Made by a program: the position numbers and the translations under genes. Under the pieces are notes generated by a model. That model ran no database searches and was not told the origin of the DNA. It saw only the letters and a program-made list of their open reading frames with translations. A DNA stretch of 50,105 bases, taken from assembly GCF_004010195.1 (NCBI RefSeq), contig NC_057718.1, positions 54,830,583-54,880,687 on the forward strand, read 5' to 3'. Positions 9,684 through 45,732 of this stretch are shown in pieces. The DNA is from Chiloscyllium plagiosum (taxonomy: Eukaryota). Position 1 is the stretch's first letter, and each line of letters opens with the position of its first letter.

Positions 9684-12221
9684 CATCACCTCCACTGTTC
9701 AACACACACTGATACCAAGGTGATAGCCAGATAGAGTCGTAGTCATAGAGTCATACAGCTCGGAAATAGACCCTTTGGTCCAGCCAGTCCATGCCGACCA
9801 TAACCCAAACTAAACTAGTCCCACCTGTCTGAGCTTGGTCCATATTCCTCCAAACATTTTTTATTCATGTACTTACCTAGGTGTCTTTAAAACATTGTAA
9901 CTGTACTCGCATTCACCACTTCCTCTGGAAGTTCATTCCACATATAGACCACTGTGTTTTCTTAAAAGAATTGTCCTTCATGTCGTTTTAAATCGTTCTC
10001 CTCACCTTAAAAATATGCTCCCTAGTCTTGGAGTCCCCCATCCTACGCAAAAGCCACCTCATAATTTTATATCCCTCATAATTTTATAAACCTATATAAG
10101 GTCACCCCTCAGCCTCCTTTGCTCAAGTGAGAAAAGTTTCAGCTTCTCTTCATGACTCAAACCCTCCATTCCTGCAACATCTTGGTAATTCTCTCCTGAG
10201 CCCTTTCCAGGTTAATAATATCCCACCTATAGCATTTTGAGAAAACAAACAAGGGCACAACTTAGAGAATTAAATGTAGGGCCTTGAGTAGTATTATAGA
10301 ACAGAGAGATCTAGGGGTTCAGGCACATAATTCTTTGAAGTTTGTGTCACTTATAGGTAGAGTGCTTAAGGAGGCATTTAGCACGCTTCCCTTCATTGCT
10401 CAGGCCTTTGAGTATAGTAGTTAGGACATTGTGTCAGACATGAGGGGAGGCCTCTTCTAGTTGCCCTACTATAGGAGAGGTATTACTAAGCTTGCAATAC
10501 CTTGTATCTATCCAAATTAAACTCCATCTGCCACTCTTCAACCCATTGGCCCAATTGATCACAATCTCTTTGTAATCTTAGATAATCTTTTTCAATGTCC
10601 ACAATACATTTTGGTGTTATATGTAAACTTACTAACCACACCATCTATATTCTCTTCTAAATCATTTATATAAATTACAAACAAAAGTGGACCCAGCACC
10701 AATCCCTATAAAACACTGCTGGTCTTAAGTCTCCAGTCTTAAAAACAACCCTCCACCATCACACTATCTCCTGCCATTAATCAATTTTGTATCCAGTTGG
10801 CAAGCTCACTCTGACTTCCATGTATCCTAACTTTACTAATTAGTCTGTATTGCAGAACTTTGTCAAAGGTTTCACTAACTTCCGTATAAACAATGTCTGC
10901 TGCTTTGGCCTCATCATCTCCCTGGTTACTTTCTCAAAAAAGTCAATCAAGTTTGTGAGACTCAACTGTCCTCACACAAATCATGCTGGCTATTCCTAAT
11001 CATTCCTTGCCTCTCCAAATGCTCAAAAAATCTGCTTTTCAGAATCACTTCCAACAACATACGCACCATCAAAGTCGGGCTCTCAGGTCAATAGTTCCTA
11101 GTCTTCTCCGTAGATTGTTTCTTAAACAAAAACACAAACATTAGCTGGTATCCAGTAATCTGGCACCTCACCTGTAGTTACAAATGATACAAATATTTCT
11201 GCAATTTCCTCCCTAGCTTCCCACAATATCCTGGATGCAATAGGTCAGGTCCCAGAGAGTTAACCAACTTTATATTTTATAAGACCTCCAGCACTTCCTC
11301 TTTTGTAATGTGAACTGTTGTCGAGACATTGCTATTTGTTTCTCTGAGTTCTCTCACACCCACTTCCTTCTCTACAGTAAAAACTGATGCATAATATTCA
11401 TTTAATATCTCTCCCATCTGCTGACATCAACACAAAAATGATTTATTTGATCTTTAAGGGGCCCTACTCTCTCTCTAATTGGTCTCTGGTCTCTTGCTCT
11501 TAATGTACTTGTCGAATGTCTTTGGATTATCTTTAACATTATTTGCCAAGGTTATCTCATATCTTTTTGCCTTCCTGATCTCCCTCAAGAATTTCCCTGC
11601 ACACATTATACTGTTCAAGCGATTCATTCAAACCCAGTTGTCTGTCAAATATATGACTTTTTAAATTTTTGGCTAAAACTTCAATATCTTTATTCAGCCA
11701 TTGTTGTCTGATAGCCTGTCAGCCTTACCTTTTACTCGAAAAGGAACACAATGACTCTGAACTCTCATTATCACACTTTTGGAAGCCTCCCACTTATCAG
11801 ACATCCCTTTATCTGCTAACAGTCAACTCCCGTCACTTTGTGAAATTTCTTGTCTCATACCATTTAAAATTTACCTTACTCCACAATTAAAAGCATTTAG
11901 CACTTATGGAAAGTTTCTCCTCTTCCATAACTACTTAAAACAAATAGAATTGTGATCTCTAGGCCCAAAGCGTTTACCTAATTATCACTTCAGTCACATG
12001 CCGTGTCACTCACTCGACCCAAAGCATTCCCCTATTATCACTTCAATCACATGCCCTGTTTTATTACCCATGGAAGGTCAAGTTTTGTTCTTTCCCTAGT
12101 GGGAACATTCACATATTGATAAAGAAAATTCTTTTGAACACATGTAACAAATTCTTCACCATCTAAACCTTCAACACTGTGGTAGTCCCAGTCAATGTTT
12201 GGAAAACAATGTTCGGGCTCT

Positions 12222-12311
12222 CCTTCGATAGCTCAGCTGGTATAGCGGAGGACTGTAGTGTGTCGCAAATCTGTCATCCATAGGTCGCCGGTTCAATTCC
12301 GGCTCGAAGGA
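12222..12311 (+). tRNA. tRNA-Tyr(GTA) with 17-nt intron (12259-12275); two stem mismatches, probably a pseudogene copy
   Basis: CCTTCGATAGCTCAGCTGGTATAGCGGAGGACTGTAG-[TGTGTCGCAAATCTGTC]-ATCCATAGGTCGCCGGTTCAATTCCGGCTCGAAGGA: 37+36 nt, intron after position 37, anticodon GTA at 12255-12257, TTTT 11 nt downstream. Differs from the vertebrate consensus at 12243 (D stem G>T) and 12280 (anticodon stem T>A). Confidence 0.9.
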
Positions 12312-12324
12312 GCCTCAGCTGTTT

Positions 12325-12638
12325 TATGGGCGGCACGGTGGCACAGTGGTTAGCACTGCTACCTCACAGCACCAGAGACCCAGGTTCAAATCCCACCTCA
12401 GGCGACGGACTGTGTGGAGTTTGCACATTCTCCCCGTGTCTGCGTGGGTTTCCTCCGGGTGCTCCGGTTTCCTCCCACAGTCGAAAGATGTGCAGGTCAG
12501 GTGAATTGGCCATAATAAATTGCCCGTAGTGTTAGGTGAAGGGGTAAATGTGGGGGTATGGGTGGGTTGCACTTTGGCGGGTCGGTGTGGACTGGTTGGG
12601 CCGAAGGGCCTGTTTCCACACTGTAAGTAATCTAATCT
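12325..12638 (+). mobile_element. HE1-type tRNA-derived SINE, full length
   Basis: A box GGTGGCACAGTGG, B box GGTTCAAATCCC, core TGTGTGGAGTTTGCACATTCTCCCCGTGTCTGCGTGGGTTTCC, LINE-like tail GGGCCGAAGGGCCTGTTTCCACACTGTA and (AATCT)n. Confidence 0.92.
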
Positions 12639-12739
12639 AAACTAAAATCACCTACTATTATAACCTTATTATTCTTATATATATCTGAGATCTCTCTAGA
12701 TATTTGTTCCTCAATTTCCCTCTGACTATTGGGGGGGTC

Positions 12740-12817
12740 TATAGTACAATCCCATTAAGGTATAGTACAATCCCATATAGTACAATCCCATTATAGTACA
12801 ATCCCATTAATCCCATT
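12740..12817. repeat. Minisatellite: 4 copies of TATAGTACAATCCCA(T) inside the LINE
   Basis: Four consecutive TATAGTACAATCCCA units with variable 0-6 nt spacers. Confidence 0.85.
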
Positions 12818-13639
12818 TCTTTTTTATTTCTAATTCCAACCCATATATTTTCACTGGACAAGTTTTCAGAAATATCTTCTCTGATTACAACAGTAATGTT
12901 TTCTTTAATCAAAAATGCCACTCCCCTCTCCTCTTTTGCTTCCCTTTCTGTCCTTGCTATGATATCCAAAACCCAGAACATTGAACTGCCAATTCTGTGC
13001 ATCCCTCAGCCAAGTTTCTGTAATAGCTATGACATCCCAATCCCATGTTCCCAAATGTGCCCTGACTTCATCAGCCTTGCGTGTAAGACCTCTTGCATTG
13101 AAATAAATGTAATTTAATTCTTCAGATTTACTTTGTTCTCTGTCTTGCTCTTGTCTGTCTTTTCTAATTAACTTGTTCTTTTCACATTCAAAACCATTCT
13201 CATCCATTTTTCTATCTACTCTGCTACTTGGGATCCCTTCACCACCAGCACTGCCCCACCCACCCTCTCTAGTAGTTTACAGTCACCCTTAATAGAATGA
13301 GCAAATCTTCCTGCTAGGAAATTGGTCCCTTTCCAATCCTGGTAAAACCATTCTTTTGAACAGGTGCTTTTTTTTTCCCCAGAAGTGATCCCAATCATCC
13401 AAGAACTTGAATCCCAGAACATTACACCGTCTCCTCAGCCATTGATTTATCTTCTTTATTCTTTTTATTCTTTCCCTCATTCAGTCTTGGCACCAGGAGA
13501 TTACTACCTTTGAGGTTCTGTTTTGTAATCTTCTACTTAATCTCTTATATTTAATCCGTAATGCCTTAATTTTTTTCCTTAACTATGTCCTTCCCACCGA
13601 TGTGTGCAGTAACTTGAGGTTTCTCACTCTCCCCTTAAT

Positions 13640-13950
13640 GATTAGATTAGATTAGATTCCCTAGAGTGGAAACAGGCCCTTCGGCCCAACCAGTCCACAC
13701 CAACCCTGCGAAGAGCAACCCTCCCAGACCCATCTCCCTCCGACCAATGCCCCCAACACTACGGTAATTTACCATGGCCAATTCACCTGACCTGCACATC
13801 TTTGGACCGTGGGAGGAAACCAGAGCACCCAGAGGAAACCCACACAGACACAGGGAGAATGTGCAAATTCCACACAGTCACCCAAGGCTGGAATCGAACC
13901 TGGGACCCTGGCGCTGTGAGGCAGCAGTGCTAACCACTGAGCCACCCTGC
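13640..13950 (-). mobile_element. HE1-type SINE
   Basis: Reverse complement of the 12325 element: (ATTAG)n tail, GTGGAAACAGGCCCTTCGGCCC ... GCAGCAGTGCTAACCACTGAGCCACC. Confidence 0.9.
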
Positions 13951-38321: not shown

Positions 38322-38662
38322 TGCATGGTGGTTCAGTGGTTCGCACTACAGCCTCACAGTGCCAGGGACCCGGATTCAATTCCAGTCTCGGGTGACTGTC
38401 TGTGTGGAGTTTGCACATTTTCCTCATGTATGTGTGGGTTTCCTACGGGAGCTCCATTTTCCTCCCACAATCCAAAGATGTGTATTTTAGGAGAATTGGC
38501 CATGCTAAATTGCCCATAGTGTAGATTAGGTGCAATAGTCAGGGGTAAATGTAGAGTAATAGGGTAGGAGAATGAGTTTGGGTGGGTTACTCTTTGGAGG
38601 GTTGGTGTTGGCTTGTTAGGCCAAAAGGCCTGTTTCCACACTGAAGGAATTCTCTGATTCTA
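38322..38662 (+). mobile_element. HE1-type SINE (older, diverged)
   Basis: GGTGGTTCAGTGG, TGTGTGGAGTTTGCACATTTTCC, GGCCAAAAGGCCTGTTTCCACACTG. Confidence 0.88.
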
Positions 38663-40399
38663 TTGATCCACCACAGAACAGTTAATTATTATCTGCCATA
38701 TATTGCTGTGGTAAAAGGTGGATAGCATGTTATAATTTTGGATTTCAACTTTATAAGAGACAAATGGATTTTGGGTCAGTTCTGGGAAGATAATTATTTT
38801 AAAGTTCATGAAATTATTTGAAACAGTGACTTAAATACATAATTTCTAAGAAATTATGTGACTTCAGATAAGAGCCTGGCAGGGTGCCTATAGTGGTAAT
38901 AGATGGAATGTTTATATTGCTGAGTTTACAAATAGAATAGATGCCATTAATTTAGCTTTTGACTTCACTTCAGAAGATCAAACAGCTTTCCCCTAGCAGG
39001 AGAAACAACTTGTAAGAACTGAATCCGTTTAAGCAATCAGAACTGAGAGAGCTTCATGCCAGCAGACTTGGAAAGAATTCATAAAACACTCTCAGCAGTC
39101 AAGGGAAAAGAAATTGTGAAAAGGCAGTTAAAGATTTGAGATAGGACTGATATTTCCCTGGGATTGAGTGTCTGAAAGGATAATGTTAGGAATCAAGTGT
39201 TGAAATTTATTTTGCTGCTTGACTTTTAGAACAACTAGCTTTATTTGATTTTGTTTTCTTTTGGGCAGGAAACTTAGGTTCTGTTTGAAAGAACATCTGC
39301 AGCAGCATTCCCTCTAATTTTTTTTCTTCTTCGTGGATCTCCAATGTCTGTGCACAGCAATGACTGCTGGAAGTGGAAGTCAGTGCTGCAATCCACATTG
39401 CCATGCGCAGTGTACAAACATGACCTGCAGCCTCATGTGAACATGTTTCAGTAATTCACCGCCATGGTAAATAACAGCAAAAATTCACAAAATGATAATT
39501 CGCAACAGGTTTCATGCTGGAATCTGACTTGTCCAGAAATACCATCAGTGAAATAAGGACTACGTACTAATCATGTAGCTCATGATTTTATGCATCCCAC
39601 ACAAGTGTGGGCTAAACAAGATCCATATTGGTACACAAAATGTCACCTAGTAGATCATTCAGTTGTGTAAGCAACACAACTTCTTGGCACATTCTAAAGG
39701 AGCCCTGCATACTCCTGAGAGTGTCTCTCTCAATTTGTTGTGGATTGTTGCATCCCACATACTCTCAACGCCATGAGGCTAGTTGTCAGCAGATATATGA
39801 TTATCTCATTTGATTGTGGTACTAGTGAACCCAACCCCTAGTTCTTCATTCAACAACAATATCTGACCTCGTCTTATACACCTGATCTCCTGTCCACAAT
39901 TCTGGAGCAATATAAACAAGCATTCAAACCAAGTTTATCAAGCATACCCTCCAGTATTCCATCCAAAGTCAATTACTTCTGCTTTCCCTTACTGTCTGTC
40001 TTCCTTGTGCCTTTGCCAATTCTAATGCTCCTGCTCAATGATCCCCAGTGACTGCAGCGTAATTGAAATACTAAAGAGACTCTAGATAGAATCATAGAAT
40101 CCCTACAGTGTGGAAACAGGCCCTTCGGCCCAATTTGCAGGATGACTTCAAACACCTCTCGGCTTAGAAGGCCTGCTTAGGGCTGAAAGAATATGGACCA
40201 GCTTGCTGACATGTAACAGACGGAGCACTTCAGAGCAGTAGGATAAGGTTGGTTAATAGTGTCACATAGTCATTCTGAGAGAGGACAGCAATATAATGTT
40301 CCAGAAGCTCAGGCACTGAAGGATACTACTGGAGCTGATCTTTAAGCACATTTGTAAGCTTCTATTTATAGAGCTCCATGTTACAAACATGCATCACAT

Positions 40400-42274: not shown

Positions 42275-42592
42275 TATGGGCGGCACGGTGGCACAGTGGT
42301 TAGCACTGCTGCCTCACAGCGCCAGAGACCCGGGTTCAATTCCCGCCTCAGGTGACTGTGTGGAGTTTGCACATTCTCCCCGTGTCTGCGTGGGTTTCCT
42401 CTGGGTGCTCCGGTTTCCTCCCACAGTCCAAAAAAATGTGCAGGTTAGGTGAATTGGCCATGCTAAATTGCCCGTAGTGTTAGGTGAAGGGCTAAATGTA
42501 GGGGAATGGGTCTGGGTGAGTGCGCTTCGGCGGGTCGGTGTGGACTTGTTGGGCCGAAGGGCCTGTTTCCACACTGTAAGTAATCTAATCTA
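42275..42592 (+). mobile_element. HE1-type SINE, full length and young, nested in CR1
   Basis: TATGGGCGGCACGGTGGCACAGTGG...GGTTCAATTCCC...CACACTGTAAGTAATCTAATCT, highly similar to 12325-12638. Confidence 0.93.
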
Positions 42593-42689
42593 AAAAAAAT
42601 CCATGCCTCTGTCCTTCCTACCAAGGTGCATGACCTCACACTTTCCCATGTTGTACACCATCTGTCACTTCTTTACCCACTCTCTAACC

Positions 42690-45417: not shown

Positions 45418-45732
45418 ATAGTATAGAAAAAGGCCATCCAGCCCATCGTGTCTGCACGAATCCTCCGAAAAGCATCCCACACCAACCTGCAACTCTGCCT
45501 TTACTGTGCTGATCCGTCGAACCTGTCCATCCCTGAACACGACGGACAATTTAGAATGGCCAATTCACCTAACCTACAGATCGTTGGACCGTGGGAGGAA
45601 ATTAGAGTGCTCCACAGAAACCCATACAGATCCAGGGAGAATGTGCAAACTCCATGAAGTTGCCCAATGCTAAAATTGAACCCAGGTCCCTGGCACTGTG
45701 AGGCAGCAGTGCTAACCACTGAGCCACCATGC
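45418..45732 (-). mobile_element. HE1-type SINE (diverged)
   Basis: GGGAGAATGTGCAAACTCCA...GAGGCAGCAGTGCTAACCACTGAGCCACCATGC is the reverse complement of the SINE head and core. Confidence 0.88.

Follow-up and report, generated by a model that had tools for sequence, protein, structure and literature searches.

A stretch of 50,105 nucleotides of the shark Chiloscyllium plagiosum (contig NC_057718.1, positions 54,830,583 to 54,880,687; this whole stretch is called the window) contains a decayed long interspersed element (LINE), whose endonuclease region in open reading frame 2 is split by an insert of two joined parts. The first is a copy of an unspliced precursor of tyrosine tRNA (pre-tRNA-Tyr), and the second is a complete short interspersed element (SINE). 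The parts are listed in Table 1. The anatomy of this insert and the recurrence of similar fusions in the genome point to template jumping by a LINE reverse transcriptase (RT).

Table 1. The insert and its host element in the window (positions of the window).
Feature	Position	Strand	Remark
Decayed host LINE, endonuclease region, split by the insert	11400..13400	-	ends not mapped
5' AAAC copy, likely 4-bp target-site duplication	12204..12207	+	C private to the locus, present on both sides
Seven extra bases, foreign to the tRNA gene	12208..12214	+	absent from parent genes; origin as flank copy probable
Pre-tRNA 5' leader, 7 nt, GGGCTCT	12215..12221	+	matches array genes
tRNA-Tyr(GTA) copy, unspliced, without CCA	12222..12311	+	called by ARAGORN and Rfam
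17-nt intron	12259..12275	+	identical to intron of C98128 array genes
3' trailer, GCCTCAGCTG followed by TTTT, copy of an RNA polymerase III terminator	12312..12325	+	equals parent trailer up to the T-run, not past it
Full-length, apparently tRNA-headed SINE, likely start AT-GGGCGGC, tail (AATCT)2	12326..12638	+	younger of two subfamilies
3' AAAC copy, likely target-site duplication	12639..12642	+	first two A's also readable as tail

The tRNA and SINE parts share one strand and join directly, with the retroelement tail on the 3' side. When 12208-12642 is removed, the minus strand reads as an unbroken LINE endonuclease stretch, KVIIVGDFSFPNIDWDYHSVEGLDGEEFV. This restored motif and the AAAC brackets at 12204-12207 and 12639-12642 had both been claimed in an earlier note made from the sequence, and both were seen. 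The same holds for its tRNA-Tyr with a 17-nt intron and no CCA, which scored 47.2 bits in Rfam against a cut-off of 29, for its full SINE with an (AATCT)n tail, here two AATCT units, and for the lack of any host base between the two parts. Substitutions at 12243 and 12280, relative to the array gene described below, disrupt pairs of the D-stem and the anticodon-stem, and the tRNA-Tyr copy is therefore likely a dead pseudogene; since these two stems are not intact, a functional tRNA-Tyr gene was ruled out. A tailless tRNA retropseudogene was likewise ruled out by the full SINE lying 3' of the tRNA copy.

Two boundaries had to be redrawn. The 14-nt leader of the earlier note was reduced to the 7 nt that match the parent, and the bases at 12208-12214 resemble nearby target DNA instead: CAATGTT at 12207-12213 repeats the target sequence at 12193-12199. 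These seven bases, together with the preceding C, likely derive from the flank and were copied when the 5' side of the insert was joined. The leader starts at the same base in six other dispersed Tyr copies (L003, L009, L011, L025, L028, and L031; L numbers designate loci collected from the genome), and this base likely marks the start of parent transcription. At the other end of the pre-tRNA, the trailer ends in TTTT as had been described, and the AT that follows (12326-12327) is reassigned to the SINE. Among the first 100 listed of 12,952 young SINE heads, hand-counted for the preceding bases, GT precedes 57 and AT 16; because 73 of the 100 are thus preceded by GT or AT, the AT is likely the SINE's own 5' end, and with this assignment the junction runs from terminator to start with nothing in between. 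A non-templated AT between the parts was rejected on the same count.

The host LINE is presumably of the CR1 type, a label based on motifs and not on a library match. In 14 of 14 related LINE copies taken from the genome, the sequence continues across the site of the insert without a break (GGAAAAT/TAAAATC, the slash marking the site), and all 14 carry the T that is replaced in the window by C on both sides of the insert. As this C is private to the locus and stands on both sides, the AAAC repeat is likely a true target-site duplication. The same anatomy was examined with a host-contiguity script given 30 chimeric loci, of which 29 were testable and one lacked a tail. The whole tRNA and SINE unit interrupts one host repeat at one point in five of the 29 (L001, L005, L026, L075, and L081); the other 24 have no contiguous host among the collected loci and are hence uninformative. 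Inside the host LINE, a unit of 15-16 bp is present three times at 12761-12809.

The closest source of the tRNA part is a tandem tRNA-Tyr array with a period of 1,241 bp, 96% identical over 107 nt and carrying the same intron. The earlier note had proposed a search for the parent by intron, leader, and trailer, and for a SINE behind it; no SINE follows the array tRNA-Tyr genes. Homology between window and parent starts at the first base of the leader (-7) and stops at the T-run, and nothing of the parent flank is present; the extension past the pre-tRNA bounds by which that note would have recognized a duplication at the DNA level was not seen. Copying of a tRNA gene together with a neighboring SINE as DNA is in principle within the repertoire of this genome, as tRNA arrays do duplicate here (L014, L015, and L018), but with homology confined to the transcript and no SINE behind the array genes, both this explanation, of negligible probability, and read-through from the parent are excluded. 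As to the arrays themselves, L041 and L042 (G000:C98128 and C43) are tandem arrays of about 1.24-1.25 kb units with tRNA-Tyr plus tRNA-Ala, and many Tyr copies of the C43, C7, and C95854 arrays are without part of the T arm. The arrays may be linked to the oocyte-type tRNA arrays of Xenopus.

The junction in the window is single-copy in the genome. The earlier note had proposed that a single hit would mean a one-off event and many hits with different flanks a composite family; the junction itself gave the single hit, yet many fusions with different flanks and junctions were found, an outcome that this alternative had not foreseen. A homology search with the Tyr copy gave 40 matches, 16 of them genes or array copies and 24 dispersed. 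Among the dispersed copies, 12 are followed by the SINE in sense and three by a 3' piece of a LINE, each with its own junction and flanks; one further Tyr fusion, truncated at the 5' side (L167), lies beyond these 40 matches. The SINE also follows 12 of the 30 best matches to U6, in sense and with differing junctions. The fusions are thus neither a composite family nor a one-off, but repeated independent events.

The range of partners was examined genome-wide with a sense pattern composed of B box, T-run, and SINE head, which gave 51 matches, 49 of which were scanned with Rfam; Rfam was preferred because ARAGORN, once its threshold was lowered, made many false calls in the heads of SINEs. A tRNA at the Rfam cut-off was found in 21 of the 49 sense-pattern loci versus none of 29 antisense-pattern loci (Fisher p 9e-6), the sense and antisense (mirror) patterns resting on different anchors. 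By eye, 26 of the 51 matches are tRNAs, six with introns, and the isotypes identified by ARAGORN and by eye are Tyr, Gly, Asp, Arg, Ser, Pro, Cys, His, Glu, and Leu; the remaining matches resemble SINE heads, some of them nested insertions. A pattern search for a CCA-ended tRNA joined to the SINE gave one match genome-wide, the 3' part of a tRNA-Pro with a full SINE (L205), and L076 (Glu), with CCA followed by a T-run, is ambiguous. Precursors dominate among the captured tRNAs. Chains of three parts were also found: Tyr, Gly, and SINE (L016); Tyr, 5S, and a LINE tail (L032); U6 and a tRNA (L100); the end of 5S, U6, and LINE (L102); and the end of Glu, Gly, and SINE (L183).

Several single loci of this collection deserve mention on their own. 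Two SINE-fused tRNA-Pro copies (L050:1432-1522, plus strand, and L088:828-916, minus strand) carry an intron-like insert of 17-18 nt in the anticodon loop; introns are unusual in vertebrate tRNA-Pro. Upstream of 1451 in L048, the 5' junction contains about 18 nt of the neighboring flank in inverted orientation, with the appearance of a fold-back in the course of 5' joining. In L053, L059, L069, and L073, a full SINE is joined to a 5' head of the same SINE that stops close to an internal TTT, and these heads are possibly early-terminated SINE RNAs that served as jump acceptors; L070 and L087 are, by appearance, nested insertions instead. In L060, an antisense tRNA-like stretch (seen by eye, with no Rfam call) adjoins the chimera just upstream of the Gly copy.

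The most detailed series came from a tRNA-Gly(TCC) variant, for which 40 of 451 first-look candidates were scored and the best 30 fetched. Six of these 30 are parent-like genes, with no SINE near any of them, 23 are fused to the SINE (in one case through another tRNA-like head; the 23 include one duplicate pair and the query), and one stands alone; this last copy (L176) extends from leader to first T-run with a 7-bp flanking repeat and without SINE or tail. The fused copies start within the 6-nt leader of the parents and stop at successive T-runs of the parent trailer, at about +12, +26, +66, and +109 and, in one case, near +190. The junction lies 3 nt or less from a T-run in 16 of 24 loci versus 12% for random cuts (12 of 20 after exclusion of four loci chosen by a TTT-bearing pattern), and the same feature was counted by hand just upstream of 18 of 100 solo SINEs. 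This ladder of junctions is the pattern that leaky termination by RNA polymerase III (Pol III) would be expected to leave. Within a second pattern, 17 Gly junctions comprised 16 different strings, the one string seen twice belonging to two copies that lie 468 bp from each other. In 22 of the 24 Gly chimeras, the head of the SINE is full or nearly so.

The SINE itself carries A- and B-box-like motifs, recognized by eye at 12335-12390, and its head falls below the Rfam tRNA cut-off. About 50 nt of its 3' part align with three CR1-type LINE ends from the same genome, and a script search of the collected loci found no LINE ending in the exact SINE tail. It is a putative HE1 element; HE1 is a V-SINE, a group defined by an 80-bp V-domain (PMC4824008). 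Copies or pieces of the same SINE are found elsewhere in the window at 13647-13950 (minus strand), 38323-38650 (plus), 40095-40133 (minus), 42278-42594 (plus), and 45536-45732 (minus).

A tree was made from 67 SINE halves (28 solo, 19 Gly, 10 Tyr, and 10 U6), short or deleted SINEs such as that of L003 being left out. The Tyr halves split into seven and three across a branch supported at 98/98, that is, between two subfamilies. The changes needed on the tree (eight for 10 Tyr rows and 16 for 19 Gly rows) were near the shuffled means, and no group was clearly clustered beyond the shuffles (Tyr 32, Gly 199, and U6 46 of 500), the bootstrap being unsettled. This bears on the second option of the earlier note, by which transcription of a tRNA gene continued into a SINE lying behind it and the resulting composite RNA multiplied as a family of dimeric SINEs. 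Many tRNA and SINE units do exist, and the Gly terminators are leaky, with trailers of up to 188 nt copied; however, no SINE stands behind the Tyr or Gly parent genes, the window junction is single-copy, and all but one of the Gly junction strings are distinct. With no unlinked copies sharing one junction, and with Tyr halves drawn from two subfamilies and not from one master, such a family was rejected as a candidate, and we consider this course of events highly improbable.

In another explanation, the two parts arrived successively, a tailless pre-tRNA retrocopy being followed by a SINE inserted at the same base, aided by the leaning of the SINE to T-rich sites. The stand-alone pre-tRNA-Gly with its 7-bp duplication shows that the first step exists, the TTT upstream of solo SINEs would help the second, and the ages of the halves match only weakly, a correlation of decay between the two halves being present for Gly alone (rho 0.50, p 0.03, n 19). 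Against it, zero host bases lie between the parts, the SINE stands in sense on 23 of 24 non-parent Gly copies as on half of the dispersed Tyr copies, and the antisense-pattern loci are devoid of tRNA; we regard successive insertion as very unlikely.

In the explanation that we prefer, with a probability of about 0.8, this single-copy chimeric retrocopy arose in one insertion event, during which the RT of a CR1-type LINE jumped from the end of one template to the end of another. This corresponds to the first option of the earlier note, a switch of RT from the 5' end of the SINE to the oligo-U end of a primary pre-tRNA, which fits every test run. The RT would prime at a nick on the (AATCT)n tail of the SINE, copy the SINE RNA to its 5' end, move onto the oligo(U) stretch at the 3' side of a primary Pol III transcript, and copy the pre-tRNA to its first base; as the 5' side was joined, six to seven bases of target DNA lying upstream would be acquired, and the 4-bp duplication would be left by repair. 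As the captured RNA still carried leader, intron, and trailer, capture probably took place in the germ-line nucleus. The chimeric copy has since decayed and not multiplied. The R2 RT performs processive end-to-end jumping in vitro, steered by a 1-nt overhang (10.1101/2021.04.30.442027), and by analogy a CR1-type RT may jump likewise in the germ-line nucleus. Stringent LINEs seldom copy RNAs without their tail (PMC4476161), and this would account for the SINE or LINE end to which most of the dispersed copies are attached.

An insert of identical anatomy, made in one step with both parts on one strand, would also result if pre-tRNA and SINE RNAs were ligated first, by an RtcB-type activity as for U6/L1, and the joined RNA retrotransposed in one pass. 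Such ligation was shown for U6/L1 (PMC6789731), and U6 is a frequent partner here; furthermore, the tRNA part of L032 stops one base short of the 3' splice site, close to the place at which ends with a cyclic phosphate are formed. Pol III transcripts start with a 5'-triphosphate and end at the terminator with UUU-OH. The SINE is complete to its likely start, so a triphosphate is expected there, and the tRNA part ends at its terminator, so UUU-OH is expected on the other side, whereas RtcB needed a 2',3'-cyclic phosphate and a 5'-OH, and a 3'-OH or a 5'-triphosphate sharply lowered the product (PMC6789731). The full or near-full SINE heads of the Gly chimeras also speak against ligation, which is thus judged unlikely.

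A number of observations weigh against template jumping or fit it poorly. The chemistry of RNA ends, on which the choice against ligation depends, is unreadable from DNA. The duplications over 25 loci are of only 2-6 nt and exceed those of shuffled pairings marginally (3.68 as compared with 3.26, p 0.03). When public contigs from the same and two related organisms were aligned on the 5' flank, no orthologous empty site was seen, the close contigs stopping at least 5 bases before the junction. Part of the arrays lies on small contigs, and no copy was identified as the exact parent. Nine of the 24 dispersed Tyr copies are joined neither to the SINE nor to a clear LINE end, and for five of the 24 Gly junctions the nearest run of three T's is over 6 nt away. 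The decay of the two halves is uncorrelated for Tyr (0.39, p 0.26, n 10), for U6 (-0.07, n 10), and for all 39 (0.19, p 0.25), and L097 combines a U6 at 1% divergence with a SINE at 11%. At this last locus, in the U6 cluster of G000:C25, the near-perfect U6 lies between a SINE-head fragment and the old SINE, and it may represent a live gene or else a copy that underwent conversion.

Template jumping between Pol III RNAs and SINEs has precedents. The chimeric retrocopies U6-Mon-1 of platypus and U6-AnolisSINE2 of anole, which involve L2-dependent SINEs, were ascribed to template switching (PMC4476161). As in the shark, the SINE, mobilized by a stringent LINE, has a Pol III RNA on its 5' side, with short duplications (1-9 bp in those cases); the shark partner differs in being an entire primary pre-tRNA that retains leader, intron, and trailer, in its many isotypes, and in being mostly full-length at both ends, while the U6 parts of platypus are mostly 5'-truncated (PMC4476161). 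The shark LINE is presumably of the CR1 type, for which that report had one unresolved case. Human tRNA/LINE-1 chimeras are similar in that tRNA sequence was inserted together with a retroelement, but they are mostly antisense tRNA halves ascribed to twin priming (n 21), in contrast to the whole sense precursors of the shark (PMC13174262). The pre-tRNA or tailless retropseudogenes of human L1, for which precursor tRNA served as RT template and which were taken as a sign of nuclear capture (Schmitz et al. 2004, cited in PMC4476161), are without a retroelement, unlike the shark copy with its full SINE on the 3' side. Chains of three RNAs formed by double jumps are known as the tripartite chimeras of Magnaporthe and mouse (PMC2104539), the chains of the shark differing in being built of pre-tRNAs, 5S, and U6.

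With respect to finished families, a SINE-to-tRNA template switch within a CR1 system was proposed for the origin of PittSINE (PMC5729268), and SINEs with added tRNA or 5S heads have been described (PMC4494074, PMC4824008). The same step was inferred there from finished families, while the shark presents unamplified intermediates by the dozens, with the old head retained; the terminator between the parts should block amplification of the shark chimeras, and no daughter family was found. The pair of HE1 V-SINE and HER1 LINE is listed for sharks and rays (PMC3747384), and the name would fit the present shark SINE, with its LINE-shared tail and its apparently tRNA-like head. In the open-access literature searched, no report was found of whole unspliced pre-tRNA-SINE fusions as a genome-wide class, and the consulted parts of PMC13343379, PMC7245038, and PMC5499810 describe no whole pre-tRNA-SINE chimeras.

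A broader proposal has two halves. The RT of the shark CR1-type LINE would routinely capture nascent Pol III RNAs, especially those of tandem tRNA arrays, via oligo(U) in the germ-line nucleus, so that the starts of Pol III and its read-through ends would be preserved in the genome as a fossil record precise to the base; in addition, leaky terminators such as those of Gly would have let at least one chimera be re-transcribed whole, founding a dimeric SINE by which tRNA genes are spread together with their introns. Of these, the first half is likely. For the second, no daughter family was seen, and the two halves taken jointly are unlikely.

The locus in the window is itself a dead copy, and its importance lies in the recurrent class to which it belongs. 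Fusions of this class show where Pol III starts and stops on the tRNA arrays of the germ line, and in annotations of shark genomes they will inflate the number of tRNA genes. Template jumping is set apart from RtcB ligation, a question debated for U6/L1, by the combination of a start-complete SINE with a precursor that ends at its terminator. New SINE heads are thought to come from a template switch to tRNA, usually inferred from finished families; the pre-tRNA-SINE fusions likely record this step by which SINEs gain new heads, and dozens of intermediates in one genome show which RNA was taken, namely the primary transcript and not the mature tRNA.

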